Part shown: positions 1,302-47,585 of the stretch, piece by piece
Numbering within the stretch: position 1 is the first letter of the stretch
Layout: every line of letters starts with the position of its first letter
Origin: a virus
DNA: 53,674 nt
Strand: one strand, 5' to 3'
Virus record (IMG/VR): IMGVR_UViG_3300022723_000142
Location: 1-53,674 of that record
The notes under the pieces: model-generated
What the model saw: only the letters and a program-made list of their open reading frames with translations
Told to the model about the DNA's origin: nothing
Databases searched by the model: none
Made by a program: the position numbers and the translations under genes

Positions 1302-3998
1302 ATGGTAGCACATTTTAATTTTGATAACCTCAAATCATTTGTCGGCAGCGAGAGGTTTACCGAACAGGGCAGCATTGAAAATCAGAAAGTTTGGGCACGG
1401 GTGAGGGCGTCACTACTTAAACAATTTCCTAGGTTGAAACTCTCTCAAAACTGGGAAATCGATATAGAAACCTGGCAGAAATTCAGAAAGCTTGCGCCTG
1501 AAAATATAGACAACAATACGCTCAGGAATGTGCTGATTGTTCAGGGATACATTAGCCTGAAGCCTGCTCAAATTAAGAGCAATTGGAAAGATGACTTATA
1601 TGTTCCTGGCAATGGCCAGGGGTGGAGTCACATTCGAGTCATGTTTTACCGTGGCATTTTTGGCGATTGGCAAGAGTATGGTGACGGTCAGCCGTTCGCA
1701 CGGGTAAGAATACCAACCGCAGAAATAAAGGACGGTGGGCCTAAATATTTATCGCCTAAAAATAGCGGTGGGAACCAAATATTTTGGCCCTACAAACTGG
1801 GCCGATTTGCGGGTAAGTGTGAGCCCTGCAAAGTTTTTCAATCAAGCTCGGATGGTGATGATTTAGCCTATGCCTTCAAGGGATCATGGTTGCTTACTGA
1901 GGGTGAGGATAAAGCGGTCATCAGCAATCTTTGGGGATATCCCTGTATCGCCATTGGGGGCGTTGAGATGTGGAAGGCGAGTAAAAAAGGACCAATTAAC
2001 CCCTGGCTGATGTCCTTCGCCATGAATGCCGATAAGTTAACTGTCATCTATGATAGCGATGCCTTCCACAAGCCGGGCGTCGTGTCGGCGCAGTCGCGCC
2101 TCTGTCGAGAGATGTTCAACCATCTGGCCGAACTCGCCAAAATCTCAGACGGCAACGGCGACGCTGAGGGCTACTGTGAGGAGGTTTGGGGCCAGTGTAA
2201 AGTTGATGGCCTGGATAAATATGGAGCGGATATCGCTAGGGTCCACATCGCCTATGGGTACTTGCCGCCCAATCCTTACAGTAAAGGCTTAGACGATATT
2301 CTGGCGGTTCATCAGGGCGGCTGGCTTGCTACGATTTTGAGAGAGTCCCCACGGGCGTTTGAGATATCCGTGCAAGAACCGGACGACAGCAAGGATAAAG
2401 AGAACAAGATCAAAGCAAAATGGCTATTCACAGAACCTCGAAAGTTTGGGCTGACTAACTCAAAACTCAGCCCCGTGCAGAACAACTGTGTGAGCCTCAT
2501 TCGCGGGGCACTTTCGGCAGGCTGGCTCCAGCTCAACCACTGGCGGCCCGTGGGACAACGGCAGAGTGCCATGACCTATGCTTGGGAACGCACACAGCAA
2601 ATATGGCAGCTCTCCCCTTCTAAGAACGCCGCCAACTACGCGCTAAGGCAATGGTCTGAATTGTCCCCAGGGCGCAGCGCCATGGATGGGGTATCAGGTT
2701 TCGTCGATGCGGAAATGACCTGCTTTGAACACATCTCACCTAATGTTGGCAGCAATGGCCACCGGTTTATGGGGGTAGAGGGCGGCGACTTTGATGTCAA
2801 ATTGGGGCAATTGTTACCGATTCAGCCGAACCATCATTGCTTTAGCCGCATCGATATTAAGCCATTTGAGGGGCGACCTGATAAGTTTATGGACTTCTAC
2901 GCCCAACGGATGACAGGCGGCGAAGTTGACATGGAACGGTTTATGAGCTTTCTATCCATCTGCATTCGTGACCCTGGAAAAGTACATGTGTTGGGCTGGA
3001 TAACCGGGAAAGCGGGCACCGGCAAAAGTACGCTGATGAAGCTAGTCGCTAAAATTTTAGACGGCTGGGTGATGCCCGAAGATTTGAGAAACGTGTTTGA
3101 TTCCAACAACGCCAACAAAGGCTACTTGCCTTTGCACCTACTAGGAAAAATCCTTATATACGACGACGACTGGAAAGGGCTTCTCAGCACCAGCATGATT
3201 GGACACCTCAACAAAATTGCGACCAATACCGACATGCCCTTTCGCGGGATGAGCAAAGATCCCATCTTGACTAAACCAAACATGGGTGTACTCATGATCA
3301 CTAACGAAGACCTAATAATGAGCGCTGCTGACATTCAAGGGCTTCCCCGACGCATCCAGAAATGGGAATTCAAAGACGACAAATTCACCTCAGACGACTA
3401 CACCTTGGCCGAGTCACTACTCGAAGAAGAGAAAGGGAAAATTCTTTGGTACTTGCTCCACAAAGACCTTGAAGACTGCGCCCAAGAATTACAGGCATTC
3501 ACCGAAGCTGAAGAGGATTCGATAGAGCGTGGCTTTGCCGTTAATCACAGCGCTGAGTGGGTCGAGCGCCTGGAAGTCTGGGCACAGCAAAACCTATTCA
3601 GCCTGCAAGAGGGAAACCACAAAGGGCAAAGTACAGCCAATTATGCCAGCTTGAATGTTGATGGAGGCCCCCACGGACTAAGTCGGCTCAGCAAGGAATC
3701 AAACACCACGGAAGGCAGGCCAGCAGACTGGAACTATCTACCGGAAGTGTTTGGCGTGAAAGTGACCACTACAACGGTGGAAATCTACGCCAACTCCGCC
3801 AACTGGATTAGCGCAATCGCCAACTACGAGCGAGGCGAACACAATCCTAATGCCAGCCACCGTGGAGATAGAACCACCCTCAAGGCGCTTAAGAGCTTTA
3901 TCGACACCCAAAATCAAATCGGACTCAACCACCGCGCTAAGGCTCAATTCAACGGCGACAGAATAAGCGGCTGGAGCATTGAGTTTAGGAAAACCTAA
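1302..3998 (+). CDS. DNA primase/helicase (Toprim-like region plus P4/D5-type P-loop NTPase)
   Basis: 898 aa. Toprim-like 'LLTEGEDKAVISNLWGYPCIAIGGVEMW' and 'VIYDSDAF'. Walker A 'GKAGTGKST' and Walker B 'ILIYDDDW' in the C-terminal half. Confidence 0.6.
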   Translation: MVAHFNFDNLKSFVGSERFTEQGSIENQKVWARVRASLLKQFPRLKLSQNWEIDIETWQKFRKLAPENIDNNTLRNVLIVQGYISLKPAQIKSNWKDDLYVPGNGQGWSHIRVMFYRGIFGDWQEYGDGQPFARVRIPTAEIKDGGPKYLSPKNSGGNQIFWPYKLGRFAGKCEPCKVFQSSSDGDDLAYAFKGSWLLTEGEDKAVISNLWGYPCIAIGGVEMWKASKKGPINPWLMSFAMNADKLTVIYDSDAFHKPGVVSAQSRLCREMFNHLAELAKISDGNGDAEGYCEEVWGQCKVDGLDKYGADIARVHIAYGYLPPNPYSKGLDDILAVHQGGWLATILRESPRAFEISVQEPDDSKDKENKIKAKWLFTEPRKFGLTNSKLSPVQNNCVSLIRGALSAGWLQLNHWRPVGQRQSAMTYAWERTQQIWQLSPSKNAANYALRQWSELSPGRSAMDGVSGFVDAEMTCFEHISPNVGSNGHRFMGVEGGDFDVKLGQLLPIQPNHHCFSRIDIKPFEGRPDKFMDFYAQRMTGGEVDMERFMSFLSICIRDPGKVHVLGWITGKAGTGKSTLMKLVAKILDGWVMPEDLRNVFDSNNANKGYLPLHLLGKILIYDDDWKGLLSTSMIGHLNKIATNTDMPFRGMSKDPILTKPNMGVLMITNEDLIMSAADIQGLPRRIQKWEFKDDKFTSDDYTLAESLLEEEKGKILWYLLHKDLEDCAQELQAFTEAEEDSIERGFAVNHSAEWVERLEVWAQQNLFSLQEGNHKGQSTANYASLNVDGGPHGLSRLSKESNTTEGRPADWNYLPEVFGVKVTTTTVEIYANSANWISAIANYERGEHNPNASHRGDRTTLKALKSFIDTQNQIGLNHRAKAQFNGDRISGWSIEFRKT

Positions 3999-4670: not shown

Positions 4671-4862
4671 CTATGCGGCGAAGTCGAACAGAGCATCAAG
4701 GTAGGTTCGACTCGCCCGGCGATCACCGCTGCCATTCTGCATTAAGAACAGCGACAATGCCGCTTGGAATGCGCGGTCTTGGCTCCACCCTGGATGTTTA
4801 TCTAGATATTGCTGCATCGATTCGTGGAGTTCGTTGGGAATTTGAACATGTAAACTGATCAT
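4671..4862 (-). CDS. DUF2811-like small protein (family otherwise typical of cyanobacterial genomes)
   Basis: 63 aa. 'IPNELHESMQQYLDKHPGWSQDRAFQAALSLFLMQNG' matches my recollection of the DUF2811 signature (..ELHESL..FL..HP.WDQDR...AALSLFLLQN). Confidence 0.5.
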   Translation of the reverse strand: MISLHVQIPNELHESMQQYLDKHPGWSQDRAFQAALSLFLMQNGSGDRRASRTYLDALFDFAA

Positions 4863-5199: not shown

Positions 5200-5544
5200 T
5201 CAAAATAGATCATTGTCGGCAGCCTGAAACCGATCGCCCTGGAACTTCTCGTCCCAAGCGAAGTATCCTCCATCAAGAGGCAGAACACAGTGCGGATATT
5301 CTCCGTGTCGCTGCATCGTCGCTAACTGGGTTTTATAGCCTTTCATGTATCGCTTGCTGTATTGGTACATCGGCGTATCGCCATTGCGAGCATCAGATAC
5401 CCCCTTTCCTTGCAGTGCGTCCATGCGCCAGCCGATGAAATACAAGTCTTTATCGGTCAATTGACTAGAGTATAGTTCAACATCTTCTCCCGCAAAAAAG
5501 TAATCGGGCTGTTGAGCGGCGATTCCAAAAGCTTCGTGTGTCAT
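5200..5544 (-). CDS. Hypothetical protein
   Basis: 114-aa ORF, first gene of the leftward block, divergent from the XRE gene. Confidence 0.55.
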   Translation of the reverse strand: MTHEAFGIAAQQPDYFFAGEDVELYSSQLTDKDLYFIGWRMDALQGKGVSDARNGDTPMYQYSKRYMKGYKTQLATMQRHGEYPHCVLPLDGGYFAWDEKFQGDRFQAADNDLF

Positions 5545-5631
5545 TGGATTACATCCTTGCTGTGTACATCTCCCATTGTTGCCGATGCTGCGAGAGGTGT
5601 CAAGCGTGGCCTTACATTTATACGTCAGTGC

Positions 5632-5660
5632 TTGACATTTGTAATCTTGAGCTTTACAGT
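5632..5660 (+). promoter_or_regulatory. Sigma-70-type promoter for the XRE/pentapeptide operon
   Basis: TTGACA (5632-5637), 17-nt spacer, TACAGT (5655-5660). GAGG Shine-Dalgarno at 5675 and ATG at 5685. Confidence 0.55.
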
Positions 5661-5684
5661 GCAGATAGTTAATTGAGGCGGCAG

Positions 5685-5948
5685 ATGAAAGTCATCTACG
5701 AAGTTGAAGTATTAGGTTTGGGAAGCAAAATCCAACAGTGCCGTCGATTGAGCGGGAAGTCTGTAGAAGAACTGGCTGACGCTGTTGGGATTTCTCGGCA
5801 AACCTGGTATGCGATTGAGAATGAGCAGCATTCAGTCCATGTAGATGTTATTCGGCAGATTGAAGCTCAGTTAAGAGAATCGGCGATTGCCCTAAGCATT
5901 TTGCCGTTGTTTGGTGTTGACATTAAGGAGAGCAGTCGTGACGTTTAA
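5685..5948 (+). CDS. XRE-family helix-turn-helix transcriptional regulator
   Basis: 'RRLSGKSVEELADAVGISRQTWYAIENEQHSVHVDVIRQIEAQL' is a typical Cro/CI-type HTH. The ORF track begins at TTG 5673; the ATG at 5685 has the better SD. Confidence 0.7.
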   Translation: MKVIYEVEVLGLGSKIQQCRRLSGKSVEELADAVGISRQTWYAIENEQHSVHVDVIRQIEAQLRESAIALSILPLFGVDIKESSRDV

Positions 5949-5987
5949 ATCAATCCCGCCGCCAAAGTCTCAGGAGAGCGAGCGCTG

Positions 5988-6707
5988 ATGTCCTTATACA
6001 CCGAAACCGACGGGCGGCTCATCATCCCCCCGCCGTCGCACATCTCATACACAAGCTGGCCAAGACGGGAATTTGTTAGTCGAACTGGCCAGTCTTGCTG
6101 GGAGGGTTTAGCGGATTATGTCGACAGCCTCAAAGTCAAGCTGTCGGTCACTCAGCGGCGTTTTGAATACCTTCGTGACCATCCCAACCAAACGCAGGAG
6201 AACAAAAAGGCTCAGGCGCGTTTTCTAAAAGAGCGAACCCATCTAGCCATGTGCCTGGATCATTATGAGCTGGTGCTGAGTAAGCAGACTAAGCGGTCTA
6301 GCGACTTAGCGCTAAAACATGCAGCCACTGCCGCTACGATGGCCAGAGAGAACAGAGAGTACATCTCGGAGCATTATAAAGCGATAAAAAAGTTCGATAA
6401 ATGTCGGGGGCACATCAAGGCCAACCGCGAAGCAATCTCTCGCAATCAGTTGGCCATTCGAGGGTTCATAGACAACGCTCACCGGCAATCCGCGATCGCT
6501 CACCAGGTAGAACAGAATTCTGATGCGATTGTGAGCTACGCAAAAACTTTGCAGGGAGTTCAGCGCAATGTGGCTGAGTTAAAGCAGTTGCTCAACGCGC
6601 GACCAGTTCAAAAGGTGAAGCCGCCCCCGCCCCGTGAAGAACCGTGGAACGCATCAGGGTATCGACCGCCTGATTTGGCGGGAACGTACATATTAGATAG
6701 AGAGTGA
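5988..6707 (+). CDS. Hypothetical, predicted coiled-coil protein
   Basis: 239-aa ORF. Overlaps the next gene's start by 4 nt, suggesting translational coupling. Confidence 0.6.
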   Translation: MSLYTETDGRLIIPPPSHISYTSWPRREFVSRTGQSCWEGLADYVDSLKVKLSVTQRRFEYLRDHPNQTQENKKAQARFLKERTHLAMCLDHYELVLSKQTKRSSDLALKHAATAATMARENREYISEHYKAIKKFDKCRGHIKANREAISRNQLAIRGFIDNAHRQSAIAHQVEQNSDAIVSYAKTLQGVQRNVAELKQLLNARPVQKVKPPPPREEPWNASGYRPPDLAGTYILDRE

Positions 6708-7288
6708 TCATGGAAGTAAGTGAATTAATTGAAAAATATCAGGCTGGGGAACGTGACTTCAGCTGGGCAGACCTCTGCGGGGCAAACCTCAGCCGGGCAA
6801 GCCTCTGCGGGGCAAACCTCAGCTGGGCAAACCTCTGCAGCGCAAGACTCAGCCGGGCAAACCTCAGCCGGGCAAGACTCAGCCGGGCAAACTTCTGCGG
6901 GGCAGACCTCTGCGGGGCAAACCTCAACGGGACAGACCTCAGCGGGGCAGACCTCTGCGGGGCAGACCTCTGCGGGGCAAACCTCTGCCGGGCAAGCCTC
7001 AGCCGGGCAAACCTCTGCGGGGCAAACCTCTGCGGGGCGCGAGGCAACGGCAGAGAGATTTGCTCTGCACAAATAGGGAAATACGATCTAATTTGGACGG
7101 CTGAAAATCTATGGATCGGCTGTCAGTCTGCACCATTAAATGTTTGGTGGAATCGAACCCCGGAGGACATTGAGCAGATAGAACAAGGCGCAGGCGCGCT
7201 CTGGACAAAACACAGGGACTTTATTTGGCAAATGGTCGACCAATTTCCGGCTACACCCACCAATGGCAAAGCCCCTAAAAAAGCGTGA
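6704..7288 (+). CDS. Pentapeptide-repeat protein
   Basis: About 18 consecutive A(D/N)LXX units ('ADLCGANLSRASLCGANLSWANLCSARLSRANLSRARLSRANFCGADLCGANLNGTDLSGADL...') followed by a ~70-aa non-repeat C-terminus. Confidence 0.85.
   Translation: MIMEVSELIEKYQAGERDFSWADLCGANLSRASLCGANLSWANLCSARLSRANLSRARLSRANFCGADLCGANLNGTDLSGADLCGADLCGANLCRASLSRANLCGANLCGARGNGREICSAQIGKYDLIWTAENLWIGCQSAPLNVWWNRTPEDIEQIEQGAGALWTKHRDFIWQMVDQFPATPTNGKAPKKA
6761..7037 (+). repeat. 15-nt periodic tandem repeat encoding the pentapeptide units
   Basis: Reiterated gcaaacctc(a/t)gc(c/g)gg units. The repeat creates shadow ORFs in three other frames. Confidence 0.9.
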
Positions 7289-7330
7289 TCGTCACTCTGG
7301 TATCGAATTCGGGCACAACAAAAACCTCTT

Positions 7331-7369
7331 CTCATTACTGCAAAAGTGCAACACTTTTGCAGTAATGAG
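7331..7369. terminator. 18-bp perfect hairpin between convergent genes (possible bidirectional terminator)
   Basis: CTCATTACTGCAAAAGTG (7331-7348), loop CAA, CACTTTTGCAGTAATGAG (7352-7369). No U tract on either side. Confidence 0.5.
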
Positions 7370-7420
7370 GCTAGTAGCTAGTGACAAAAGATAGTGACAC
7401 GATTAGCAGCACCCAGAACT

Positions 7421-7468
7421 AAATTGCGGCTATCCCCGTCCTCTATAGGGCGGGGATAGCCGCGATTT
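7421..7468. terminator. Long hairpin immediately downstream of the - strand XRE gene
   Basis: AAATTGCGGCTATCCCCG pairs with CGGGGATAGCCGCGATTT (one mismatch). Ends 4 nt from the stop at 7472. Confidence 0.5.
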
Positions 7469-7471
7469 AGT

Positions 7472-7732
7472 TCATACTCTCCAATACTCCATATCAACAC
7501 CCAATGCTTCACACAATGGCGATAGCATCGTGGCCGGAATGCTGCCTGTAATTTCCCAATAGCTTATAGTTTGCTGCATCACTTTGACTTGCTTTCCAAG
7601 TTCAGACTGGGACAAGCCAGCAACCGCCCTAGCCCCCTTTAGTTTTTGTTTAAGCCGTGATTCTGGTGTGAAACCATTTGGGACGGGACACCATTCATCG
7701 ATATTGCCACTGGGGTTAATGTCTTTTACCAC
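7472..7732 (-). CDS. XRE-family helix-turn-helix transcriptional regulator
   Basis: 'LKGARAVAGLSQSELGKQVKVMQQTISYWEITGSIPATMLSPLCEALGV' is a typical HTH_3 pattern. Divergent from the head operon. Confidence 0.7.
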   Translation of the reverse strand: MVKDINPSGNIDEWCPVPNGFTPESRLKQKLKGARAVAGLSQSELGKQVKVMQQTISYWEITGSIPATMLSPLCEALGVDMEYWRV

Positions 7733-7803
7733 ATTGATATTACGTAATTCAATCCCATTCTAGTTTATTCCGTAGGGTTTGTTTTCATACTGCCTACTCT
7801 TGA

Positions 7804-8982
7804 GTGGTATGTGATTCGGCTTGCTGCATGGCCTTTCGTTGCGATCGCACCCCTATCGAAAATTATGAAGAACTGCCCGATGGCCGCTTGCGTGTTCGGG
7901 CAACATTTTCGCGTGTGGGCCCACTTGACTACATCCGCAGTGATGGCACGGTCCAGACTGAGTATTTAGATGCCGACGAACTATTCCGAGCTGATTCACT
8001 AAAGACCGCCGGACTAGCACCCGTCACTTTGGGGCATCCCGACGAAGGTTTTGTTACTCCAAAAAACTGGCGTAAATATGCGGTCGGAGCGTCCGGTTCT
8101 ACTATCACGGCTAACCGTCAAGATGGCTTGGTTGAAGTGGTGTTTCTCGTTGGCGATGAAGACGCGATCGCGGCTATCAAAGAAAAGAAGGCGACTCAAG
8201 TTAGCGCGGGCTATTCCACCACAGTTGAGCAGCGCAGCGATGGAAAGTTTTACCAAACCAATAGGCAATACAACCATTTGGCGCTAGTCGAGCGGGGTCG
8301 AGCAGGCCCTGACGTAAAAGTTCATTTTGATGGACTTGATGATTTTGCAGTGCAAACAGATGACTCTCAGGAGGTCAAAACCGACATGGCCAAATATAAG
8401 GGCATGGAAATGGATGAGAAGGCGGTGGATGCTTTTAAAGAAATGGAAGCTGACATGGCCAAGATGAAAGAAGACATGAAAGGCATGAAGTCGAAAAGCG
8501 ATGCTGCGGAAAGCTTCACCATTGACAAGCTCCAGGGCGAGATTGATGGTTACAAAACTCGCATTGATGCGCTTGAAAAGGAGCGTGATGGGCGTCTGGA
8601 TGCCGATGCAGTTGCCGCTCTGGCGACTCAGCGCTTGAATGCGTTTGAAGAGTGCAAGAGCTTCATAAAAGATGCCAAGTTTGACGCGGCTATTGAGCCG
8701 ATTGAGTGGCGTAAAGCGGCGATCGCTAGCGTCAATTCCAAGCTAAATCTAGATGGCAAGTCAGACGACTACGTGAACGGGATGTTCTCTATTCTGTCCA
8801 CGGCAACCGAAGCGGCAACTGTCAACGCTGAAAGCGAAGGCGCGAAGACATTTAAGGACGTTTTAGACGCGGCGGGTACGGCAGGCCATAGCGGTACCAG
8901 TGGTGAGCGTGCCGACGAAGATAAACAAGATGTTGACGATATTGCGGCGATCAATGGGCTCTTTTCTGGAGGTAACAAGTAA
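7804..8982 (+). CDS. Prohead protease/scaffold-like protein (DUF2213-like N-terminal domain, acidic coiled-coil C-terminus)
   Basis: 392 aa and first gene of the head block. 'VTLGHPDEGFV', 'VSAGYS' and 'YNHLALVERGRAG' resemble the DUF2213 family as I recall it. The C-terminal half is K/E/D/M-rich and scaffold-like. GTG start; the alternative is ATG 7828. Confidence 0.5.
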   Translation: MVCDSACCMAFRCDRTPIENYEELPDGRLRVRATFSRVGPLDYIRSDGTVQTEYLDADELFRADSLKTAGLAPVTLGHPDEGFVTPKNWRKYAVGASGSTITANRQDGLVEVVFLVGDEDAIAAIKEKKATQVSAGYSTTVEQRSDGKFYQTNRQYNHLALVERGRAGPDVKVHFDGLDDFAVQTDDSQEVKTDMAKYKGMEMDEKAVDAFKEMEADMAKMKEDMKGMKSKSDAAESFTIDKLQGEIDGYKTRIDALEKERDGRLDADAVAALATQRLNAFEECKSFIKDAKFDAAIEPIEWRKAAIASVNSKLNLDGKSDDYVNGMFSILSTATEAATVNAESEGAKTFKDVLDAAGTAGHSGTSGERADEDKQDVDDIAAINGLFSGGNK

Positions 8983-11623: not shown

Positions 11624-11734
11624 ATGGCAACTACAACCGAAGTCGGCACATCCTTAACAACTATCCTCACGATTCCTGCAAAGTTTTCCAGTCGCATCGG
11701 CATCCAGATTGAAATTGACTACTCCCCGCTCTAA
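11624..11734 (+). pseudogene. 5' fragment of a small virion-module ORF interrupted by the TnpB element
   Basis: The ATG lies 1 nt after the previous stop and encodes MATTTEVGTSLTTILTIPAKFSSRIGIQIE. The frame then runs into the element's hairpin and stops at 11732-11734. Confidence 0.5.
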
Positions 11735-11880
11735 AGAGACGGGGATTCCCCGGTCACCCGGAGAGGTTTCTGCTTCGTAGCACCTGCCTTTCGAGATTTA
11801 CTCTCTTCGGGTCTTACGGTCGCTCCACAGACTGAAACCGCTTGCCCAGCGGCCAAGACATTTATCGCAGCGTTGACATC
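11699..11880 (-). ncRNA. Predicted omega (right-end) guide RNA of the TnpB element
   Basis: Inferred from known TnpB biology: the omega RNA spans the 3' end of tnpB and the right end, then reads ~16 nt into the flank. The right-end hairpin (11723-11745) overlaps the tnpB stop. No direct evidence of transcription. Confidence 0.3.
11722..11749. repeat. Right-end subterminal hairpin motif of the TnpB element
   Basis: CTCCCCGCTCTAAAGAGACGGGGATTCC; stem TCCCCG/CGGGGA. Confidence 0.8.
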
Positions 11881-12927
11881 CCGATCATGGTGAAATCCAC
11901 ATTCAGGACAATCCCACTCTCGAATATTGAGCGGCAATCGTTGAACGACATGCCCACAGTTCGAGCAGCGCTTGGAGGAGGGAAACCAACGGTCAATTTT
12001 GACCAGCTCCCGACCATACCATTCGCTCTTATATTCAAGCTGCCTAACCAATTCACCCCAGCTAGCATCCGATATGGATTGAGCCAGGGAGTGATTTTTC
12101 ACCATATTCTTCACAGCCAAGTCTTCAACGGCAATCACTTGGTTGTCGCGCACCAATTGAGTTGTCAGCTTGTGAAGGAAATCTTTGCGAGTATCCGCAA
12201 TTTCGGCCTGCAACTTGGCTACTTTAAGCCGTGCTTTATGCCGATTGCTGGAACCTTTCAATTTGCGAGACAAAGCTTTCTGCGCTCGACGCAGACGCTT
12301 GTACTTTGCCTTAAACGTTTTGGGATTAGCGATCTTCTCACCTGTACTCAGCGTGACCAGACTGCTAACACCCAAGTCAATCCCGACCTTATTGCTGGTG
12401 CCGGGAAGATGGTTGATTTCAACATCAACCAGCAAACTCACAAACCACCTGCCGGACGGATCAAGCTTGACCGTCACCGTAGATGGTTCAGCACCTTGAG
12501 GCAACTGCTGACTCCAACGAATCGGCAACGCTTCAGAGCATTTAGCAAGGAACAGTTCACCGTCTTTCCAGCGGAAGGCAGACTTAGTGAACTCGGCACT
12601 GCCACCATTTCGCTTCTTTTTGAAGTTCGGATATTTAGTCCGACCAGCCCAAAAATTAGCAAACGCCTTTTGGAGGTGCCTCAAACCTTGCTGCAAGGGG
12701 ACGCAGCTAACTTCATTCAGGAAGTTCAGCTCATCTTCCTTCTTCCACTCAGTCAGCAATGCCGACGTTTCTTTGTACCCAATTCGCTCTTGCCTTTCAT
12801 ACCAGCCTTCAGTCCTTGCGGCCAAAGCACGATTGTATACAAGACGGGTACAGCCCAACGTTCGCCGCAGCAGGTTTTCCTGCTCGGCAGTTGGGTAAAA
12901 ACGATAGCGATAAGCACGTTGAGTCAT
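11731..12927 (-). CDS. tnpB: TnpB (IS605 OrfB-type RNA-guided endonuclease)
   Basis: 398 aa. N-terminal 'YRYRFYPTAEQENLLRRTLGCTRLVYNRAL'. RuvC-I 'VGIDLGVSS'. RuvC-II 'VIAVEDLAVKNM'. Zn ribbon 'CSNCGH...CPECGFHHDRDVNAAINV' carrying the RuvC-III Asp. Confidence 0.9.
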   Translation of the reverse strand: MTQRAYRYRFYPTAEQENLLRRTLGCTRLVYNRALAARTEGWYERQERIGYKETSALLTEWKKEDELNFLNEVSCVPLQQGLRHLQKAFANFWAGRTKYPNFKKKRNGGSAEFTKSAFRWKDGELFLAKCSEALPIRWSQQLPQGAEPSTVTVKLDPSGRWFVSLLVDVEINHLPGTSNKVGIDLGVSSLVTLSTGEKIANPKTFKAKYKRLRRAQKALSRKLKGSSNRHKARLKVAKLQAEIADTRKDFLHKLTTQLVRDNQVIAVEDLAVKNMVKNHSLAQSISDASWGELVRQLEYKSEWYGRELVKIDRWFPSSKRCSNCGHVVQRLPLNIREWDCPECGFHHDRDVNAAINVLAAGQAVSVCGATVRPEESKSRKAGATKQKPLRVTGESPSL

Positions 12928-22022: not shown

Positions 22023-24524
22023 CTAAACCCAGCCATGACGACGATTAAGTAAGTCAGCATCATTTCGAGTGCGATGGTATTCGAGGCTGCACTTGCAATT
22101 CACAAAACATATCCGAGTTCCCGGCATTGACATTTGCCCCCTCAGTACAATCCCCTTGCCAGTTTCAGCGACACATTCTGAGCAGTGTTCGGCAACGCCC
22201 AACCTATTGCTGACATAGGGAAACTCAGCCACGGGATGGGCGGCATCCTGCGCCTGGTTATATAGCAGCTCGGCATCATGCACATAGAGTTTAGCCCGCG
22301 CCGAGATCGCCCCGACCGACATCACACCGCTCAATACTTCGGCACTGAACCGCCGCAGGTAGTCGTACTGCCTTAATAGTTCATCCTTTACGGTTTCTCG
22401 ATAGCGCGGCTCAATATTGCGTCGGTTGCCAAATCCGAACACGAAGAACAATGCTGCTGCCCCTGCAATGATTTCGGCTAGCCGTTCTTCCCATTGCGCC
22501 GCATCGATATCGCCCGACTCTAGCAGGGATGTTAGAGCGTCAATCTGCCCCTCATAACTATCGAGTTCAGCGGTGAGCAGTTCTAGAATCTCATCAGGCG
22601 TCACCCGGTCATCGCCATCGCGGTATTGGCCTGCATCTTCATCCCATTGCCACCCTTGTTCATCGGCCAGCGATCGCACCTCAGCCCAATCAATATCGCT
22701 CAACTCTTGAAAGTAGGCAACGCTGGGCAATCGAACGAAGTCCGGCTGAAAAAGGTCAGTATCAAACTTTTTTGCATGTTCCTCTCCCCCGTCCGCTCTT
22801 GTTGATTCAGCAGTTTTGTAATTCGCAAGCTCTTTTAATGTTAGCTCTCGCACTTCGCCCATAAACTCTTTGGGCATAGCTGAAAGATAAATGGCCTTAG
22901 CTTCATCAATTGATGAAGCACCAATAACCATCTTTTCTTCGTCGAATTTACCATTGATAACTTGGTCAATAGCAAATACTTTTTTGCTGGCCAGGTCAGT
23001 GCCCACATAAACATCAACAGCCATCCCGTCAGAGCCTTTTGTCTTTTGGAAATGCCCATAGCCAGCTTGCAAAACCTTGCCATGCCGCTTATCAAACGGA
23101 AAATACTGAAGTCCAACCCTAAAACCGTTCCAGTCAATGACCCTTTTTGTTGGGGTTGCTTCATCATTCCTATCGTTAGGCGCTGCTGTAGCCACTTCGA
23201 TTACATTCTCAATGTCTTGGCCAGTCGAGATCGCCATGCGCACCTCATCAGCGCTCACGGCCCCCGACTCAATCAGCAACTTAAATGTCTCGGCTTGCCC
23301 CTTCTTGTTTTCCTGCTTCTCCTGTGGCGTTTCGGTGTAGATACTGGGATATTCAATTTCCCAGTTACTGGGCACTGTGCCCAACGCCTCAAAGATGGCG
23401 TGGAATACGATGCGGTGGTTGCTCATAAAATCCTGAGCTTGCCAAGCCTGCACTTGTTCGGCATATGCCCGCGTTTCAGCGCCGCCGCTATCCGCCAACG
23501 CCGATTTACCCACAGTCCCCCAAATCTTATAGAAAGGTAACCCGGTGGCCGCCGTCAGCTCATCTACAATCGACTGAAAGTTCTCCTTGACGCCAGTGAA
23601 GGAGCGCTCTTGAAAGTCGCTGTTGCTGGTCTGGGCATCTTGCACCAACACCTTATGCAGACTCATCATCTGGGCGATCGAGTTCATCATATTGGTGAGT
23701 GCCGTTTCACCGCCTGGGCCAGCCAGAACATCTACCAGACCATCGATAGAAACCTTAATCAGCGAATAGGTTTGTAGCCCTTTTGAGATAGCATCCTTGG
23801 CCATATAGTGTCTATTGAAAATCTCAAATATTCCCTGAATGACGGAGTCGTGGCCTGCATCGCCTTCTAACTGTTGATCATAGGGGTGAATCTCAGCACC
23901 ATCAAACACCAGCACTCGGCTATGGTGGATGCGCTGGTTAAACCTGAAATCCTGGTTAGCATTGTCTCTGCCCTCCGTGCGGGCGATGCGGTAAAACTCC
24001 GGGTCGCTAGGATTGATAGTTGTGAAATCTGGTCGCAGCTGGTAACGATCCAGCACTGAAAAACCCTCAAAACTTCGCACCTTTCGCAGCGGCTTTTCTG
24101 GATTCTCAGAACCATTCACCCTCAGCACAATATATGCGCGTCCAAACAGGTCGGCATATTGCTTCGCCTTACGGAATGCGTCATGGCCTGACATTTGCCG
24201 ACTATAAGGGGATGCATTCTGAGAGCCCTGGTTATAGATGGCGATCGCTGCTGCTGCGTCCTGTTCGTCTCCCCCCTCATGGATGACCAACTCAACCCCT
24301 TTACGTGTCATGTCGTTAGCGGGGGCATCGATGATGCGGCGAATTAGCCACGAGCCACGGTATAGCGATCGCAACTCCACTTCAGACAGCAGCCGCACCT
24401 GCCCAACCTGAGTTGAGGTGAACGGGTCTCGGCCATGAACCCCCATACCCGTTGCCGTATTTCCTAGCAGCGAGTTACTGAGGGCGTTGGCTAGATTATC
24501 AAACCGCAGGTCAGTGTCAATCAT
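22023..24524 (-). CDS. Portal protein candidate with long C-terminal extension (possible head-morphogenesis fusion)
   Basis: First large gene downstream of terL on the same strand. The track ORF reaches 24623, but the first 33 codons run into the repeat module, so ATG 24524 (MIDTDLRFDNLANAL...) is the more plausible start. The C-terminus ends in a Cys cluster 'CSECVAETGKG...CFVNCKCSLEYH'. Confidence 0.55.
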   Translation of the reverse strand: MIDTDLRFDNLANALSNSLLGNTATGMGVHGRDPFTSTQVGQVRLLSEVELRSLYRGSWLIRRIIDAPANDMTRKGVELVIHEGGDEQDAAAAIAIYNQGSQNASPYSRQMSGHDAFRKAKQYADLFGRAYIVLRVNGSENPEKPLRKVRSFEGFSVLDRYQLRPDFTTINPSDPEFYRIARTEGRDNANQDFRFNQRIHHSRVLVFDGAEIHPYDQQLEGDAGHDSVIQGIFEIFNRHYMAKDAISKGLQTYSLIKVSIDGLVDVLAGPGGETALTNMMNSIAQMMSLHKVLVQDAQTSNSDFQERSFTGVKENFQSIVDELTAATGLPFYKIWGTVGKSALADSGGAETRAYAEQVQAWQAQDFMSNHRIVFHAIFEALGTVPSNWEIEYPSIYTETPQEKQENKKGQAETFKLLIESGAVSADEVRMAISTGQDIENVIEVATAAPNDRNDEATPTKRVIDWNGFRVGLQYFPFDKRHGKVLQAGYGHFQKTKGSDGMAVDVYVGTDLASKKVFAIDQVINGKFDEEKMVIGASSIDEAKAIYLSAMPKEFMGEVRELTLKELANYKTAESTRADGGEEHAKKFDTDLFQPDFVRLPSVAYFQELSDIDWAEVRSLADEQGWQWDEDAGQYRDGDDRVTPDEILELLTAELDSYEGQIDALTSLLESGDIDAAQWEERLAEIIAGAAALFFVFGFGNRRNIEPRYRETVKDELLRQYDYLRRFSAEVLSGVMSVGAISARAKLYVHDAELLYNQAQDAAHPVAEFPYVSNRLGVAEHCSECVAETGKGIVLRGQMSMPGTRICFVNCKCSLEYHRTRNDADLLNRRHGWV

Positions 24525-24611
24525 GGAAAGTAACAGGAAGGTTCCCTCTAGTTTACTAAATACAGAAACACTACCTATACAACAGGCAAACTTGATTAGA
24601 GACCCTGTTTT

Positions 24612-25041
24612 ATACGGTGGCACAAAACTTTAGGGGTGGCACACTTCAAAAATGGCAAGTGTGCCACCCCTAAGCCCTTGATATACAAGGATTCTTTAGG
24701 GGGGTGTCACACATGGCACACTTCATCTGGGTCGGAGCGTGCAGAGTAAATTTTCTATGACGTGTAATGCTGTGCCAGTTGCCATTCTCTCTTTTAGAGA
24801 ATTTTGTCTAGTAAATTAAATCAGAAAGAAGTGTGCCATGTGTGACACCCTAAGCAAAACTCTTGATATGTATAGCTTTGAGGGTGGCACACTTCGAAAA
24901 TAGCAAGTGTGCCACCCCCCTGAAGTGTGACACTAAAATGGTATATTTAGATACTTTTCTCAGCTTAGCTTCATAAAAGGGCGTTGTGACAATTTGGAGC
25001 TTAGGAGAAATGTATTATGGCACAATACATGTGCCAGTTGC
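24612..25041. repeat. Non-coding structured module B: inverted homologue of module A, located between terL and the portal gene
   Basis: Hairpins at 24633-24670 and 24882-24918. Perfect 23-bp inverted repeat 24702-24724/24828-24850 around a 103-bp AT-rich core. About 10 TGGCACA/TGTGCCA boxes. The reverse complement aligns with 4150-4565 at roughly 80-90% identity by eye. Confidence 0.9.
25009..25030 (+). promoter_or_regulatory. TGTATTATG..ATACA palindromic motif (copy 2)
   Basis: AATGTATT-ATGGCAC-AATACAT. Related to the copies at 53543 and 51683 and contains a TGnCACAAT extended -10-like string. Confidence 0.35.
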
Positions 25042-25129: not shown

Positions 25130-27775
25130 TTAACTGTACAGGGCATTTAGAGTGTCGACGGCTGTCCCTTCAATTAGGTCATTGATCGCAAATACCAGTG
25201 CATCAAGGCGGTTTGGGCTAGGCATTCCCGGCTGCCATGTACACATCTCACGCTCCAAATCTACAAACGTCCCAACGTGATGAACTTTCCCCGCCTCATA
25301 TTGTTGGTGCGCTGGTTCGGCCCGAATAAGTTTGCCGCGACTGGATGTAGATTCTTTCACTGCAACAGTAGGGTCAATCAGCAGGACAGTCGCTTTCACC
25401 ATGTCGCCGCCAAAGTTGCGTTCAGCTACCAGATAATTAGCTTTCAAATCATGGTATCGGTCGATCACTGCCTGGAATCTTTCATTTGGGGTTCCCTTCA
25501 AACTGTCATCGTTGAGCACATACAGATGGCCGCTCGCTGCCTTACCCACCGCAACGTTACCGGCCTCTGTCGTAGAACTGCCCGAAGGATCAACGCCGAT
25601 CACAATCCTGATCAGCTCAGGGGTGCTGGTGACACGATACGGAGTGATGTCTCTGTCTTTGTCCCATAGCCCTCCGTCCGGTTCGTCTTCATGCTGTGAT
25701 TCGGTAAGGAATGTCCTCAGCCCCCACTTATTAATCTGTCGTTCAATGACTTCGAGGTTTTGTCCTTCTGGCCATGTGGGTTTGCCGCCACTGACGCGGT
25801 AAAGGTTTTGTTTTTTCTGATCGCTCCAATACTGCTCATATTCCAGGTCTATAGCAGCGGGCTCTTCAGTAACGGTTGCCCCTAGCAATATTTCCGCCCG
25901 ACCATCAGCAACTTGAGCGATCGCGCTGTCTTTGTGAATTTTGTTTTGCACAAAAAGCACGGTGGCATCGGTGGACTCAGCAGCGAGGATGTCACGGGAT
26001 ATTGTCTTGAGCTTCTTGGCAGTGGCTTCTGGCGTGTCGTGGGTGCCGTCGATATCATCCAATATTATGAGGTCGGGACGCTGTTCCTGAATACGAGCTC
26101 CACGAATCCGGCTATTCAGTCCCACACCAACGACGCCGAACCCATTCACCGTTTGCAACCGTTGGGCTGTCCAGTTGAGGGAAGCTGAGTATTTGTTGAG
26201 GGCACGGGGGACACCCATCTGTTCCAGCAATGCCGCGATCGCCTGCACATGCAAGTCGGCTTGATCTTGAGTGCCACAGACATACAGCGCCAATCGACGT
26301 TTCAACGAGCAAGCAAAGTACGCACAGAGCTGTTCTGCGATGGTGCTGTTGTGAGTTACCAAAAGATTTGTAATTAAGTTTTGATTACGCTCAACTTGAA
26401 CATCATAAGTTTCTCTGTCTCCCACGTCCTCAATTTTGACAACTTTGTCCCAAAAAACATCGGCTTTTTCTAGCCAAACCCATTGCGGCAAAGGCTCGTA
26501 AGTGATTGCTTTTTGAAGCTTTCCCCTGGTAATGTCGTAATCCTTCCCCAGTCGAGGCCCACCAGCGTTCCGGATTTTTCGATTAGTTCCTTTTGGCAGA
26601 CCTAACCCCACTTGACGCGGATAAGTGTCAAAAAGACTGTATCTGTGCTTTTCGCAAACCTTTTGCAGTTTTTCTTTTTTTAGAATTAGCGGCATCATAT
26701 CTCTGCATCGACTTAAGCAGTTCTGATCGATCATTAGTCTCCAAGCGCCTGCATAGTCATTAGGAGCTTCGATTGTTGAACTAATGACGCCAACTTGAGC
26801 CAGCAAAATTTCAAGGTCTTTCACTAACGCCTGATTAGCTAGAGCAATCCCCATCTTGCGCTCTTCTACCCAGCCATCGGTATCAAACATAGCTGCTAAA
26901 AAAATCCACTTTTGACGCTCTGGCAACTGAAAGACAAACTTAGGCACTCTCTTTTGAGTAGCTAATTTGTCTTTAATCCCTACGTTTTTAATCCACTGAC
27001 GCCCAAAACCTTTTAAGTTGTAGCCATATATCCCACAACGCTTAACTTCCATGCCCATTGCGTTAGCACAATAAATAAAATCCCTGACTATACACTCATC
27101 TGCATTTGTAAAACTACAATTATTAGACGTTGTAGAACCCTCGGCAATCATATAAGCCAGTAACTTAACCTCTTCATCTGGCCTGTCGATTACAGCAGAA
27201 ACGCTTTTTAAGTGGCGAGGTGAGGCGATCCTATCTTGCAGCGTCAATTCCCCTGCCAGCTTCCATCCGTCAAAAGTCCGCACTTTGTGGTCAGAAGTTA
27301 AGACAACTGATTTCCCTGTTGCCGTAGTCACCTGAATGCATGGCTTGATGCCGCTAAAAACTTTAGCGATGATGGAGTCGCCTTCGATCTGCCCAGACGC
27401 CTCATTCCAAGAAAGTATTTTTTCCCCTGGCTTGATTTCAGAAATAGGAGCTAACGACCCATCGAGTAAAGACAACATGGTATTTGCATCCAAGCATTTT
27501 GCACCGCCCCTACCCCATATCTCAACACGTGGCGTTGCGGGCTGTCCTGATTCGATAGCCTGGCCCCATTCCCAAACAGCCCTATGGCGATCTCCGTTAG
27601 GGATGAGGGTACCAGGTAGAGTGCGGGATAGGAATGCTTGTGGGGTTTCGGTGGGAGATGGGATGAGGTGAGGTGGGAGTGTGGGTCTTTCGTTTGTCGG
27701 CTTTACCCCTAACTCCTCAGCTAAACCATCCCACCAACTGTCTAAGCGCTCTGTTGTTGCTCTTTTTCTTGCCAC
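25130..27775 (-). CDS. terL: Terminase large subunit interrupted by an intein
   Basis: 881 aa. P-loop-like 'WGRGGAK|C...HN|ST' is split by the intein. After removing 383 aa, the 498-aa extein is typical in size. Downstream 'LIILDDIDG' resembles Walker B. Located after terS and before the portal gene. Confidence 0.75.
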   Translation of the reverse strand: MARKRATTERLDSWWDGLAEELGVKPTNERPTLPPHLIPSPTETPQAFLSRTLPGTLIPNGDRHRAVWEWGQAIESGQPATPRVEIWGRGGAKCLDANTMLSLLDGSLAPISEIKPGEKILSWNEASGQIEGDSIIAKVFSGIKPCIQVTTATGKSVVLTSDHKVRTFDGWKLAGELTLQDRIASPRHLKSVSAVIDRPDEEVKLLAYMIAEGSTTSNNCSFTNADECIVRDFIYCANAMGMEVKRCGIYGYNLKGFGRQWIKNVGIKDKLATQKRVPKFVFQLPERQKWIFLAAMFDTDGWVEERKMGIALANQALVKDLEILLAQVGVISSTIEAPNDYAGAWRLMIDQNCLSRCRDMMPLILKKEKLQKVCEKHRYSLFDTYPRQVGLGLPKGTNRKIRNAGGPRLGKDYDITRGKLQKAITYEPLPQWVWLEKADVFWDKVVKIEDVGDRETYDVQVERNQNLITNLLVTHNSTIAEQLCAYFACSLKRRLALYVCGTQDQADLHVQAIAALLEQMGVPRALNKYSASLNWTAQRLQTVNGFGVVGVGLNSRIRGARIQEQRPDLIILDDIDGTHDTPEATAKKLKTISRDILAAESTDATVLFVQNKIHKDSAIAQVADGRAEILLGATVTEEPAAIDLEYEQYWSDQKKQNLYRVSGGKPTWPEGQNLEVIERQINKWGLRTFLTESQHEDEPDGGLWDKDRDITPYRVTSTPELIRIVIGVDPSGSSTTEAGNVAVGKAASGHLYVLNDDSLKGTPNERFQAVIDRYHDLKANYLVAERNFGGDMVKATVLLIDPTVAVKESTSSRGKLIRAEPAHQQYEAGKVHHVGTFVDLEREMCTWQPGMPSPNRLDALVFAINDLIEGTAVDTLNALYS
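26348..27496 (-). mobile_element. Intein (383 aa) with LAGLIDADG homing-endonuclease domain
   Basis: Starts at Cys94 'CLDANTMLSL' and has block B 'VLTSDHKV'. LAGLIDADG motifs 'LLAYMIAEGS' and 'FLAAMFDTDGWV'. Ends 'LLVTHN', followed by the +1 Ser. Confidence 0.85.
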
Positions 27776-44458: not shown

Positions 44459-45208
44459 GTGAAATTAATCAGCAGCATCGTGCTCCGGTTCGGCCCCAAC
44501 ACGCCAACAATCGGCGGTGAATCGATCGAGTTTCGTGTATTCGAGGGTGACCCATTAGAAGCTCCTACTAATGCCAAAGTGTTAGGAGGTGCCCCCGCTG
44601 TTGCCTGGAAGCTTGGCCGCATCCGTACGCTTTGCGATGTGGCGATCGCGGACCCGATGATCTCCGGCATCCACCTATCTCTGATTTTTGACCCAGCATA
44701 TGGGGAGCGCGGTGAACCCGCTTGGTTGATTAGCGACGGGGGCTATTATCCCTGCGACCTGAAACGAAAGGGCGGCGATTTGGTCACGGCTGGATACCGG
44801 CAAAGCAGCGGGGGAACCTGGCTCAATGGCGAACAGCTAGGGGCGGAAACTCAGCACGGGCAACTGCGGCCGACGCTAAAACGTATCTATCCTCAAGACA
44901 GAATCCTGTTGTTCCCATCTGTAAAAATATTGGTTTTTGAGGGATTGCACGAAACAGAATTGCCTTGCGATGTATGGGAGGGAGATTGGCGAGATCATCC
45001 GGTAGGAGAACTCATATCTAGCCGAGTGGCAAACGCGATCGCCGACACCCCTCAGAGAAGCGAGCCCTGGTTTGTTCCCCTCCTTCGAGCGGTGTGGGAC
45101 GGGCCCTATGATGGCGCTCCAAAGTGGGTGCGCGGGCTATGGCGGGTTGGGTTGATTGCGTCTGGAGTGTATCTGGCCCCGTTGATTATTGAATGGTTGG
45201 TGAAATGA
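44459..45208 (+). CDS. FHA-domain protein with C-terminal membrane anchor
   Basis: GTG start 7 nt after GAGGTG. FHA signatures: 'LGR' (GR), 'ISGIHLSL' (SxxH) and 'SSGGTWLNGEQL' (NG). C-terminal 'LWRVGLIASGVYLAPLIIEWLV'. Confidence 0.65.
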   Translation: MKLISSIVLRFGPNTPTIGGESIEFRVFEGDPLEAPTNAKVLGGAPAVAWKLGRIRTLCDVAIADPMISGIHLSLIFDPAYGERGEPAWLISDGGYYPCDLKRKGGDLVTAGYRQSSGGTWLNGEQLGAETQHGQLRPTLKRIYPQDRILLFPSVKILVFEGLHETELPCDVWEGDWRDHPVGELISSRVANAIADTPQRSEPWFVPLLRAVWDGPYDGAPKWVRGLWRVGLIASGVYLAPLIIEWLVK

Positions 45209-45672
45209 TTAAGCCCCAATGGATGAGCTTGCCAGAATGTAACCTTACCGTTGGCAGCGATCGCCCCCTCATCAGCCATCGGCCCTACTTGATTTGCCGG
45301 TTCAAGGATAATTCAGAACAACGGGCTCAGTTTGATGTTGACTACTGGGGCGTCTCCGGCTGGATTCATCGCGGGCAGGGAAAATATATCTGGCATTGTG
45401 GACTGCCCAACAATGACCGCATTTGGATACATGGCGACAATGCCCCCGCCACCGAATCTAAGGTGCTGGTATCGCTGGAGTGCGATCGCTTGTTGACTTA
45501 CGACAATCAAGAGGTCAGGGCCGGGATTTACTTTGGTCGCTGCAAGCCTGTCGTGGGTGGCTACGAATGGCGGTTAAAGGTTTCGCGGGTCAGCCATTCT
45601 TCAGGAAACCCTAGCGAGTACCATCGGGTGTTGTCTCGGTTTGTTCGGTGGTTGCCATTGCCAGGGATTTGA
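45205..45672 (+). CDS. Hypothetical protein, middle gene of the FHA-EAL operon
   Basis: ATGA overlap with the FHA gene stop and TGATG overlap with the EAL gene start. The track lists 45193 as the start. Confidence 0.5.
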   Translation: MIKPQWMSLPECNLTVGSDRPLISHRPYLICRFKDNSEQRAQFDVDYWGVSGWIHRGQGKYIWHCGLPNNDRIWIHGDNAPATESKVLVSLECDRLLTYDNQEVRAGIYFGRCKPVVGGYEWRLKVSRVSHSSGNPSEYHRVLSRFVRWLPLPGI

Positions 45673-46853
45673 TGCTTTCGAAATTGCTAAAAAATACAGC
45701 CTTCGACCAGTGGCAGCATTTGCATGAGGTGCTGGCCAGGCGTGATTTCTACGGCGAGCTTAACGGGGGAAAACATGTTGTCACTTGGGAAGTTGCCTAC
45801 ATTAGAGGCGAGTGGCGGTTCATTTTGTTTGACGAAAACTACGATCTCCTTGTTGGAGAGGGCGTGCTGTTTCCACATCGTGACTGGACAGGAAAGACAC
45901 CATTTGAAATTGATGTTTGGTCCGTTGAGGATGCCATCAAAACCTCATCTCAGTATGTACTATGTCGGGAACAGGGCAGCGAAATTACTTATAGCGAACA
46001 TCTGCAGCTTGGTGGCGAATGGCGACACTGGAAGACGCGCCTAATGCCGGTCCCCAATGGACCTAAACAGGCGTGGAAGCTGATCGGCGTTTCAGAGCGT
46101 ATCGGGAAAATTGAGAGCAACACCCGAAAGGCGCTAGACAACAGCACATTTACGTTCCACTATCAGCCCATCATTAGAGTGTCGGGCAAGTGTAAGGACT
46201 GTCTGCTGTCGCCCGACTTAAATAGCTGCATGAATGACTGCGTTGCCGGGTATGAAGCATTAGCGCGATTCCCAGATGTAGACTATCCGCTGCATGTGGT
46301 GCTTCAGGTCGTTGCCGACATCGATCGCATGACGGAGATAACACGAAAGGCTGCAATGGATGCGGCTGAAAAGCTGGCAACACTGCCACAGTTAGAGGGC
46401 AAGTGGGTTTCCATCAATGTAGCAAGTTGCGATTTTATCCCCGAAATCGCTAGAGCAACCCATCAGTTCGCCATTGAGCCAATGAGACTGGCGATTGAGA
46501 TTACTGAAGACGCTGAAATTGATGACGAACTGATTGGGCGAATCAAAACCGCTCGACTGTTGGGGCACAACGTCGAAGTAGACGATTACGGCAAACCCCG
46601 GGCCAGCCTAGAGCGATTGCTTGGCGTTGGACTGTTCAGCATTATCAAAATTGATCGCGTGTTTATCCAGGGAATTGATGGAGATCACCGCAAACAATCC
46701 ATTGTTCGCAACACCGTCGACTTGTGCAGGGAGCTAAACATTGAGGTTGCTTGCGAGGGCGTCGAAACACGCGAAGAAATGGCAACCGTAATCGAACTGG
46801 GCATTCATTATGTTCAAGGCTATTACACGGGACGGCCCGCACCATTGCAATAA
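45672..46853 (+). CDS. EAL-domain protein (c-di-GMP phosphodiesterase) with unknown N-terminal sensor-like domain
   Basis: 'FHYQPII', 'GYEALARF', 'SINVAS', 'IEITED', 'VEVDDYGKP', 'IKIDRVF', 'ACEGVETREE' and 'VQGYYTGRP' cover the catalytic EAL signature set. The track start is GTG 45648. Confidence 0.8.
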   Translation: MLSKLLKNTAFDQWQHLHEVLARRDFYGELNGGKHVVTWEVAYIRGEWRFILFDENYDLLVGEGVLFPHRDWTGKTPFEIDVWSVEDAIKTSSQYVLCREQGSEITYSEHLQLGGEWRHWKTRLMPVPNGPKQAWKLIGVSERIGKIESNTRKALDNSTFTFHYQPIIRVSGKCKDCLLSPDLNSCMNDCVAGYEALARFPDVDYPLHVVLQVVADIDRMTEITRKAAMDAAEKLATLPQLEGKWVSINVASCDFIPEIARATHQFAIEPMRLAIEITEDAEIDDELIGRIKTARLLGHNVEVDDYGKPRASLERLLGVGLFSIIKIDRVFIQGIDGDHRKQSIVRNTVDLCRELNIEVACEGVETREEMATVIELGIHYVQGYYTGRPAPLQ

Positions 46854-46991: not shown

Positions 46992-47585
46992 CTAGGAACG
47001 TCGGCAGCGTAGAAGCCCGCGCTTGACGCGCTTTCCAGACGACTTCCATCCTTCGGGTTTTTCGCCGTAAACGGGGGTCTCATCCAGGTCTAGCGCCGAA
47101 GCCTTTGATGTATAGCTTTCCTCCTGTTCAATAAACTCAATCCCGCAAAGCTCGCAAAGATGTTGAATGCGTTTTTTGAGCCTGGCGGTCGGTACAGAAA
47201 CAAACTTTTGATTCGTCTTGCGCCCCATCTCAGCGCCCTGCTTTTGCCCCTTGTTCCAGCCAAAAACTAGAGTGCCAATGTGGTTTTCTAGGCAGTAATT
47301 GATGACCGTCCGAGCCGCTTTATTGACTGCATCTCGCATCTGGCGATTACGCTTGCCCGTAATGCGGTCTAGCAGGTTGCACCAAAACCCTTGAGGCTTG
47401 CCCTCTTTAATGTTGGCAACCCGTTTGTTGTACCACTGGTTCAGAGACTTGAGATGCTTGCCGTCAACAATGAATGCGTTTCCTAGACTGTCTGTGCAAG
47501 TCAGCCAGTTATCTAAGCCGGGGTCAATTGAGCAAAAAGATCGGACGGTTCCTTTTACGCTGGCGAATTTCACGACTAAGGACAT
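46992..47585 (-). pseudogene. Truncated, decayed TnpB (RuvC-I/II region only)
   Basis: 'CSIDPGLDNWLT' (RuvC-I) and 'EQEESYTSKAS' (RuvC-II). It lacks the N-terminal ~170 aa, the Zn ribbon and RuvC-III. A +1-frame continuation 'FYAADVPSAMADAV' looks like a degenerate NADVNGA motif. Confidence 0.6.

Follow-up and report, generated by a model that had tools for sequence, protein, structure and literature searches.

Sequence and fold predictions place a pentapeptide-repeat protein of a putative cyanophage in a largely viral family marked by a conserved C-terminal domain

Pentapeptide-repeat proteins (PRPs) of the MfpA and Qnr type have as their hallmarks a rod that dimerizes tail to tail through short C-terminal helices and an electronegative surface resembling that of B-DNA (PMC2964730). 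Pentapeptide-repeat genes also recur in the early or replication modules of phages, none of them with a tested function; their annotations usually borrow "gyrase inhibitor" or "quinolone resistance" from Qnr and MfpA, and the papers that we examined likewise take over the gyrase-inhibitor label or use the host PRPs McbG and QnrB as controls, our literature searches having turned up none on the function of a phage PRP. Here we analyze a PRP gene (192 amino acids, positions 6710..7288, plus strand) in a 53,674-bp stretch of viral DNA, IMG/VR record IMGVR_UViG_3300022723_000142, which is referred to below as the window and which represents a whole virus, with direct terminal repeats and a completeness rating of 100%. 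A first-pass annotation, made from the sequence alone, had taken the gene to be phage-encoded, as the record bears out, and had proposed that its product may mimic DNA. Our bioinformatics analyses weaken the latter proposal and place the PRP in a largely viral, pan-phage and uncharacterized family that is marked by a C-terminal domain. Phage PRP genes were known already but uncharacterized; the new point is this conserved viral domain.

The open reading frame (ORF) of the PRP spans 6704-7288, the database gene call starting at the ATG at 6710, and its product matches the pentapeptide family PF00805 with 98.3 bits against a cut-off of 20.2 (E 1.6e-28). It contains 18 pentads of the form A(D/N)LXX in a single register and without interruption, encoded by a 15-nt tandem repeat tract at 6765..7038 on the plus strand (18.3 copies with 83% matches in TRF). 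Three other ORFs of at least 100 amino acids overlap this tract, two on the opposite strand and one on the plus strand, covering 6725-7076 only, whereas the PRP frame extends past the repeats into a non-repeat C-terminal domain with homologues. An AlphaFold2 model built from the family alignment reached a mean pLDDT of 95.7 and shows a regular beta-helix followed by the C-terminal domain. The non-repeat tail with homologues and the confident fold of the whole protein together indicate that the gene is real. The predicted build comprises an N-terminal cap helix, a right-handed quadrilateral beta-helix of about 4.5 coils, and the conserved C-terminal alpha/beta domain, so that both the roughly 18 uninterrupted repeats and the right-handed beta-helix of the first-pass annotation hold. 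The rod carries 10 surface cysteines, each at i+1 of its repeat, whereas the N-terminal part of family members has a median of 1, and they form a five-rung ladder on one face of the solenoid. The ladder is not significant, a hypergeometric estimate giving a chance of about 0.2 for such a ladder on some face, and it is not due to duplication of a 60-nt coil because identity between repeats is about the same at lag 4 (0.824) as at lag 1 (0.831).

In the model, the C-terminal domain (residues 110-192, positions 7037..7288, plus strand) consists of four short strands and three helices that pack onto the solenoid end, and its motif reads GN..EI.S...Y.I.YT...LQIGC....W...W...PA. Ten positions are near-invariant across the family (G112, N113, T130, I136, G137, C138, W146, W165, P180, and A181), and all of them are present in the PRP. 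A word-based search with the domain returned only the protein itself, a pattern search of IMG/VR with this one domain was equally unsuccessful, and its relatives emerged from an exhaustive HMMER search, which with the domain alone recovered 240 clusters at E <= 1e-3 among 1.84 billion representative proteins. In nearly all of these clusters the match lies at the C-terminus of a protein that is 100-250 amino acids long, and at least five pentads precede it in 142 of the 150 top clusters. The part of the protein in front of the domain ranges from 20 to 209 amino acids across family members, a roughly ten-fold spread. None of 76 members of the C-terminal-domain family matches any Pfam family, and a domain-only profile found only noise among PDB sequences (best E 1.1); searches with the whole model by fold were dominated by PRP solenoids. 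Among PHROG families the PRP matches phrog_7713 (E 1.3e-32) and, over residues 83-181, phrog_31567 (E 6.2e-12). In clusters of the ESM Atlas with the C-terminal fold, half or more, and mostly two thirds or more, of the few members that have a taxon record are viral, and the fold is joined to PF00805, YdcK-type, or hexapeptide solenoids or stands alone at 66-89 amino acids. Similar motif patterns found 44 loci in IMG/VR (the narrower family alignment A2 being used for finding loci, as the wide alignment A1 was too diverse) versus 5 in a set of 185,579 prokaryote species, each represented by a single genome, and 4 of those 5 lie on metagenome-assembled contigs. A large subset of phage PRPs is thus defined by a largely viral C-terminal domain, without Pfam or PDB relative, on a non-acidic rod of variable length. 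That a conserved domain adjoins so variable a rod suggests looking to the domain, more than to a DNA-mimicking solenoid, for the source of specificity.

The solenoid itself most resembles generic cyanobacterial PRPs. For example, it scores 102.7 bits with the NCBIfam model for Alr5209 (cut-off 125) and 95.8 bits with that for HetL (cut-off 260). None of the cyanobacterial PRPs compared, which are Np275/Np276, HetL/All3740, Alr5209, and Rfr23, has the viral C-terminal domain, and this comparison of sequences argues against a recent acquisition of the gene from a host. Near-full-length matches to the PRP, reaching residue 189 and including the C-terminal domain, also occur on small Salmonella plasmids (4.9 kb; NZ_CP148831.1 and similar), and a match of the same kind lies on NZ_CP148877.1, a Salmonella "plasmid" of 41.5 kb and perhaps in fact a phage-plasmid.

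PRP genes had been described in the first-pass annotation as unusual phage cargo, but matches to the PRP occur in 380 of 50,697 phage records, in 37 BFVD models, and in at least eight PHROG families, next to the roughly 240 clusters with the C-terminal domain. The family gene itself was identified in 41 of the 44 IMG/VR loci fetched, where its neighbors are small (median 106 amino acids) and mostly unique. The functions that recur within flanks of about 5 kb belong to DNA metabolism and include a DEAD/ResIII helicase at 8 loci, YqaJ at 5, Toprim-DnaB, SSB, and AAA_24 at 4 each, and ThyX and SNF2 at 3 each; RNase H, dUTPase, dCTP deaminase, nucleases, and a cytosine methylase are among the immediate neighbors. 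At about 8 loci a second family gene lies beside or near the first. The PRPs of phrog_31567 and phrog_7713 from cultured phages, that of Campylobacter phage vB_CJ12660_3PH123 among them, share the architecture of a rod with a C-terminal domain, and the regions in which their genes sit are early ones or serve DNA metabolism. The gene of Caulobacter phage Jess A (gp021) directly follows DNA polymerase I; in Ralstonia phage DU_RP_II (p036) an RNaseH-like gene and a helicase lie downstream of it; in Rheinheimera phage Barba5S, of the Barba phages whose product is annotated as "pentapeptide", it is one of the small early genes; and in a Campylobacter phage it comes after an antirepressor gene. The C-terminal domains of these cultured-phage proteins are about 27-33% identical to that of the PRP, which in turn is mostly 30-45% identical to those of the metagenomic family. 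The present gene differs from them in repeats that are highly regular at the DNA level, and it is the sole case found with an XRE gene as leader and an orphan gene for a basic protein as partner. Caulobacter Jess A, Ralstonia DU_RP_II, and Rheinheimera Barba are the cultured carriers in which the family is tractable. A candidate that fell away was "g01" of Yersinia phage fEV-1, seemingly a leftmost early gene, which turned out to be a PRP gene cut by the start of the record and adjoining terminase genes and is uninformative.

In the present genome, the PRP gene is the last of three. The first, at 5685..5948 on the plus strand (ORF 5673-5948, the ATG at 5685 being the likely start), encodes an 87-residue helix-turn-helix regulator of the XRE family, which scores 34.5 bits with HTH_31 (PF13560; cut-off 27) and 30.4 bits with HTH_3 (PF01381; cut-off 23), matches PHROG families of transcriptional repressors and regulators, and is preceded by a GAGG ribosome-binding site at 5676-5679. 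Below threshold, it also resembles HipB-like proteins, spr1629, PezA, and RstR as well as the HTH, CapH, and control-protein models of PADLOC. The second gene (5988..6707, plus strand), which has an AGGAG-type ribosome-binding site and a stop that overlaps the start region of the PRP gene, encodes a basic protein of 239 amino acids (pI 9.7) that is probably helical. This protein is an orphan: it belongs to no Pfam, PHROG, NCBIfam, or PADLOC family, tblastn found no relative in phage records, none was found in IMG/VR, and a search of 5.8 billion proteins returned only itself; its matches in the ESM Atlas, some of them coiled-coil proteins, are all weak (TM by query <=0.40).

A sigma-70-like promoter, TTGACA-17-TACAGT, lies at 5632..5660 on the plus strand, 25 nt 5' of the XRE ATG, and agrees with the consensus at 10 of 12 positions. 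Divergent from it on the minus strand, a second such site, TTGACA-17-AACAAT (5575..5603), faces a gene for a 114-residue protein at 5200-5544, and the two -35 boxes form an 8-nt inverted (mirror) repeat. Promoter-like sites with at least 10 of 12 matches are not enriched genome-wide (7 versus 8.05 +/- 3.05 in shuffles), but two of the seven stand back to back within one intergenic gap of 140 bp, each facing a start codon, which makes a chance arrangement unlikely. Downstream, a perfect 18-bp stem-loop at 7331..7369, 43 nt past the PRP stop, is a probable terminator, and a likewise perfect 27-bp stem-loop at 7416..7473 is a probable bidirectional terminator or insulator; the 195-nt stretch that holds both (7286-7480) folds at -92 kcal/mol (z -11.2) and contains no T-tracts. 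The second stem-loop abuts the stop of a convergent gene outside the operon, at 7472..7732 on the minus strand, which encodes a second XRE-type regulator of 86 amino acids (XRE2; PF01381, 27.7 bits). Situated between the PRP and XRE2 genes, the two unusually long hairpins may thus terminate transcription from both sides or insulate the genes from each other. XRE2 is divergent from the head-protease gene and may regulate a late or head operon; a homologue with 43% identity is found at the same place (7612-7812, minus strand) in the nearest relative of the phage, a record designated L008. Taken together, the ORFs, the paired promoters, the ribosome-binding site, the overlapping start of the PRP gene, and the hairpins leave a three-gene operon well supported at the sequence level, in keeping with the XRE-led unit ending in the PRP gene, and with the promoter at 5632-5660, that the first-pass annotation had read from the same DNA.

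The setting of the unit can be read from the rest of the genome. The octamer HIP1, GCGATCGC, has 50 sites across the window versus 1.1 expected, an excess that indicates a cyanobacterial host. The replication genes (a family-A DNA polymerase, a 5'-3' exonuclease, an SF1 helicase, and a primase-helicase) straddle the ends of the record, the primase-helicase gene occupying 1302-3998, and the head module, with protease, cement protein, and major capsid protein, begins at 7804. The three-gene unit thus borders the replication module and precedes the head genes, an early or accessory type of position like that of its relatives and in line with the one first proposed. No tyrosine integrase, serine recombinase, or resolvase was found when these were sought in the complete genome, which suggests that the phage is probably virulent. 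Searches with the primase-helicase and the major capsid protein found no related phage, and a search with the head protease found a single real relative, L008, the record of which is a 48%-complete fragment.

Our preferred reading, to which we give a probability of about 45%, is that the unit is an accessory operon read by the host RNA polymerase and controlled by its XRE protein, and that the PRP is a rod-shaped binding protein which owes its specificity to the C-terminal domain and which probably targets a replication, recombination, or DNA-sensing protein. It builds on what is seen here of the modeled fold, of the family to which the PRP belongs and its enrichment in viruses, of the genomic context, and of a rod that is variable in length and a protein that is neutral in charge. 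In this probably virulent cyanophage, the host polymerase would drive the operon, most likely early, under autoregulation by its own XRE protein, and the PRP would act stoichiometrically, by binding rather than catalysis. The conserved domain would serve as a docking or self-association module, and the solenoid would be a rigid rod of adjustable length that sterically occupies or blocks the partner. Since the family genes lie among such functions, the likeliest partner would be a protein of DNA replication or recombination or a host protein that senses DNA. In the family alignment the C-terminal domain shows, apart from one cysteine, no conserved polar set hinting at catalysis. In the present cyanophage the PRP gene would then be an accessory gene of an ordinary kind, though one whose regulatory setting is unusual and self-contained.

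Several findings weigh against this reading. HTH_3 was found in only 1 of 123 immediate neighbors, and neither the XRE nor the orphan partner is conserved with the family, their linkage to a PRP gene being met in this phage alone among the family loci found, so that the operon context says little on function. L008 has other genes at the syntenic spot of the unit, as far as a 48%-complete fragment can tell. The near-invariant cysteine of the C-terminal domain could still mean chemistry, and literature searches found no experiments on any member of the C-terminal-domain family. More speculatively, and at the level of a conjecture that we consider doubtful, the rod and C-terminal-domain proteins might constitute an unrecognized, phage-wide class of inhibitors in which the domain binds some DNA-handling protein that is conserved universally (such as a topoisomerase, a helicase, or a DNA-sensing defense factor) and an interchangeable solenoid of adjustable length blocks the path of the nucleic acid by shape, not charge; here such an inhibitor would be placed under its own XRE switch with a lineage-specific partner.

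The earlier proposal that the PRP is a mimic of the MfpA/Qnr or Ocr kind, whose beta-helix imitates B-DNA and so inhibits gyrase, restriction enzymes, or other DNA-binding defense proteins, now appears unlikely. The situation of the family in DNA-metabolism modules would suit it, as would the C-terminal element after the helix, which the PRP shares with MfpA, Qnr, AlbG, and McbG and which recalls dimeric MfpA (PMC2964730). This element is, on the other hand, an alpha/beta domain of 80 amino acids, larger than the short dimerizing helix of MfpA and Qnr. The PRP falls far below the NCBIfam cut-offs for both families, with 35.3 bits against 240 for Qnr (NF033086) and 21.5 against 360 for MfpA (NF000349), and no Qnr annotation occurs among the 60 matches listed, which were taken from all along the ranked list of 307 plasmid records with a match. 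Loops interrupt the helix in the structures of QnrB1 and AhQnr, whereas the PRP helix has none. Its charge is equally at odds with mimicry: the protein is neutral overall (D+E = K+R = 19; pI 6.56), and when the sequence is mapped to the faces of the solenoid, the exposed i-1, i+1, and i+2 residues of the 18 pentads sum to about +3, coil 2 being basic (+5) and coil 3 weakly acidic (-2). As far as this mapping from sequence can tell, the rod has no acidic helical stripe, a lack that the first-pass annotation had itself named as refuting its idea, and it differs in this from the electronegative surface of the MfpA dimer (PMC2964730); the DNA-mimic reading is thereby weakened. Nor is the family acidic as a whole, since the median charge of the N-terminal part is just -2 and 30% of members stand at or above 0. 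Moreover, a rod whose length varies about ten-fold and whose solenoid type can be exchanged is a poor fit to mimicry of a DNA segment of defined length. T7 Ocr and ArdA are very acidic, in contrast to the neutral PRP. They are small, early, non-enzymatic phage or plasmid proteins, as the PRP would be, and their rod-like shape is proposed to fill DNA-binding sites, as might also hold for the PRP, but their fold is unrelated and the comparison extends to the general logic only. McbG and QnrB, for their part, were not able to block BREX by DNA mimicry alone (PMC7261183). The general idea of a non-enzymatic early protein acting on the DNA-handling machinery is compatible with the genomic context.

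That same context could be explained if the PRP served the phage's own machinery of replication or recombination as a structural accessory, for example as a rod-like adaptor whose C-terminal domain holds on to a helicase, SSB, or recombinase of the phage, with no inhibition of a host protein. The repeated linkage of the family to helicases, primase-helicase, SSB, YqaJ, and AAA_24 recombination genes, its direct adjacency to DNA polymerase I in Jess A, and the position of the unit about 1.7 kb downstream of the primase-helicase gene all point that way; no single replication partner is conserved, however, the commonest neighbor being present at 8 of the 44 fetched loci, and the frequent tandem duplication, variable rod, and patchy presence of the family resemble an arms-race accessory more than a core replisome component. 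We therefore hold this alternative to be improbable. Quite improbable, too, is a phage-borne module of defense, superinfection exclusion, or toxin-antitoxin type, in which the orphan protein and the PRP would form a toxic or excluding pair of effectors, kept repressed by the XRE protein and directed against competing phages. The sub-threshold likeness of the XRE protein to antitoxin and repressor families and to the three PADLOC models is in agreement with such a module, and so are the self-contained nature of the unit, with its own promoter and terminators, and the fact that it was not found in the sole related phage record. Against this, PADLOC-DB has no match for the PRP and only noise for the orphan (the JetC coiled coil, E 0.009), members of the PRP family occur throughout replication modules of lytic type that have no XRE gene, and the complete genome, in which no integrase or resolvase was found, gives no evidence of the lysogenic state where such a module would usually act. 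An extremely unlikely candidate, and one that we reject, is a CefA-like precursor of a ribosomally synthesized and post-translationally modified peptide, with a cysteine at every fifth position, hidden in the repeat tract. The model NF038108 does match residues 60-95 with 34.9 bits (cut-off 30), and the ten cysteines at i+1 fit it, but the PRP is three times as long as the model and folds over its 192 residues as a PRP with a conserved C-terminal domain, no radical-SAM gene was found in the complete genome, and a full ladder of cysteines on one face would arise by chance about once in five; the match and the ladder are probably coincidental.

Elsewhere in the genome, a tape-measure gene is encoded, and the portal and large terminase genes both lie on the minus strand. 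The portal gene (22023-24623) has an additional domain resembling inorganic pyrophosphatase (PF18823, E 3.8e-20) past the portal domain, and the large terminase gene (25130-27775) is split by an intein with a LAGLIDADG domain. A full-length transposase gene of the IS605/TnpB type lies on the minus strand inside the structural module (11731-12927), and a shorter OrfB_IS605 fragment is found at 46992-47585, also on the minus strand. The cluster of small genes upstream of the PRP unit includes a DUF2811 gene (4671-4862, minus strand; E 4.6e-25), a family known chiefly from cyanobacteria. On the plus strand, 44459-46853 forms a single cassette with genes for an FHA-domain protein and an EAL-domain protein (cyclic di-GMP phosphodiesterase).

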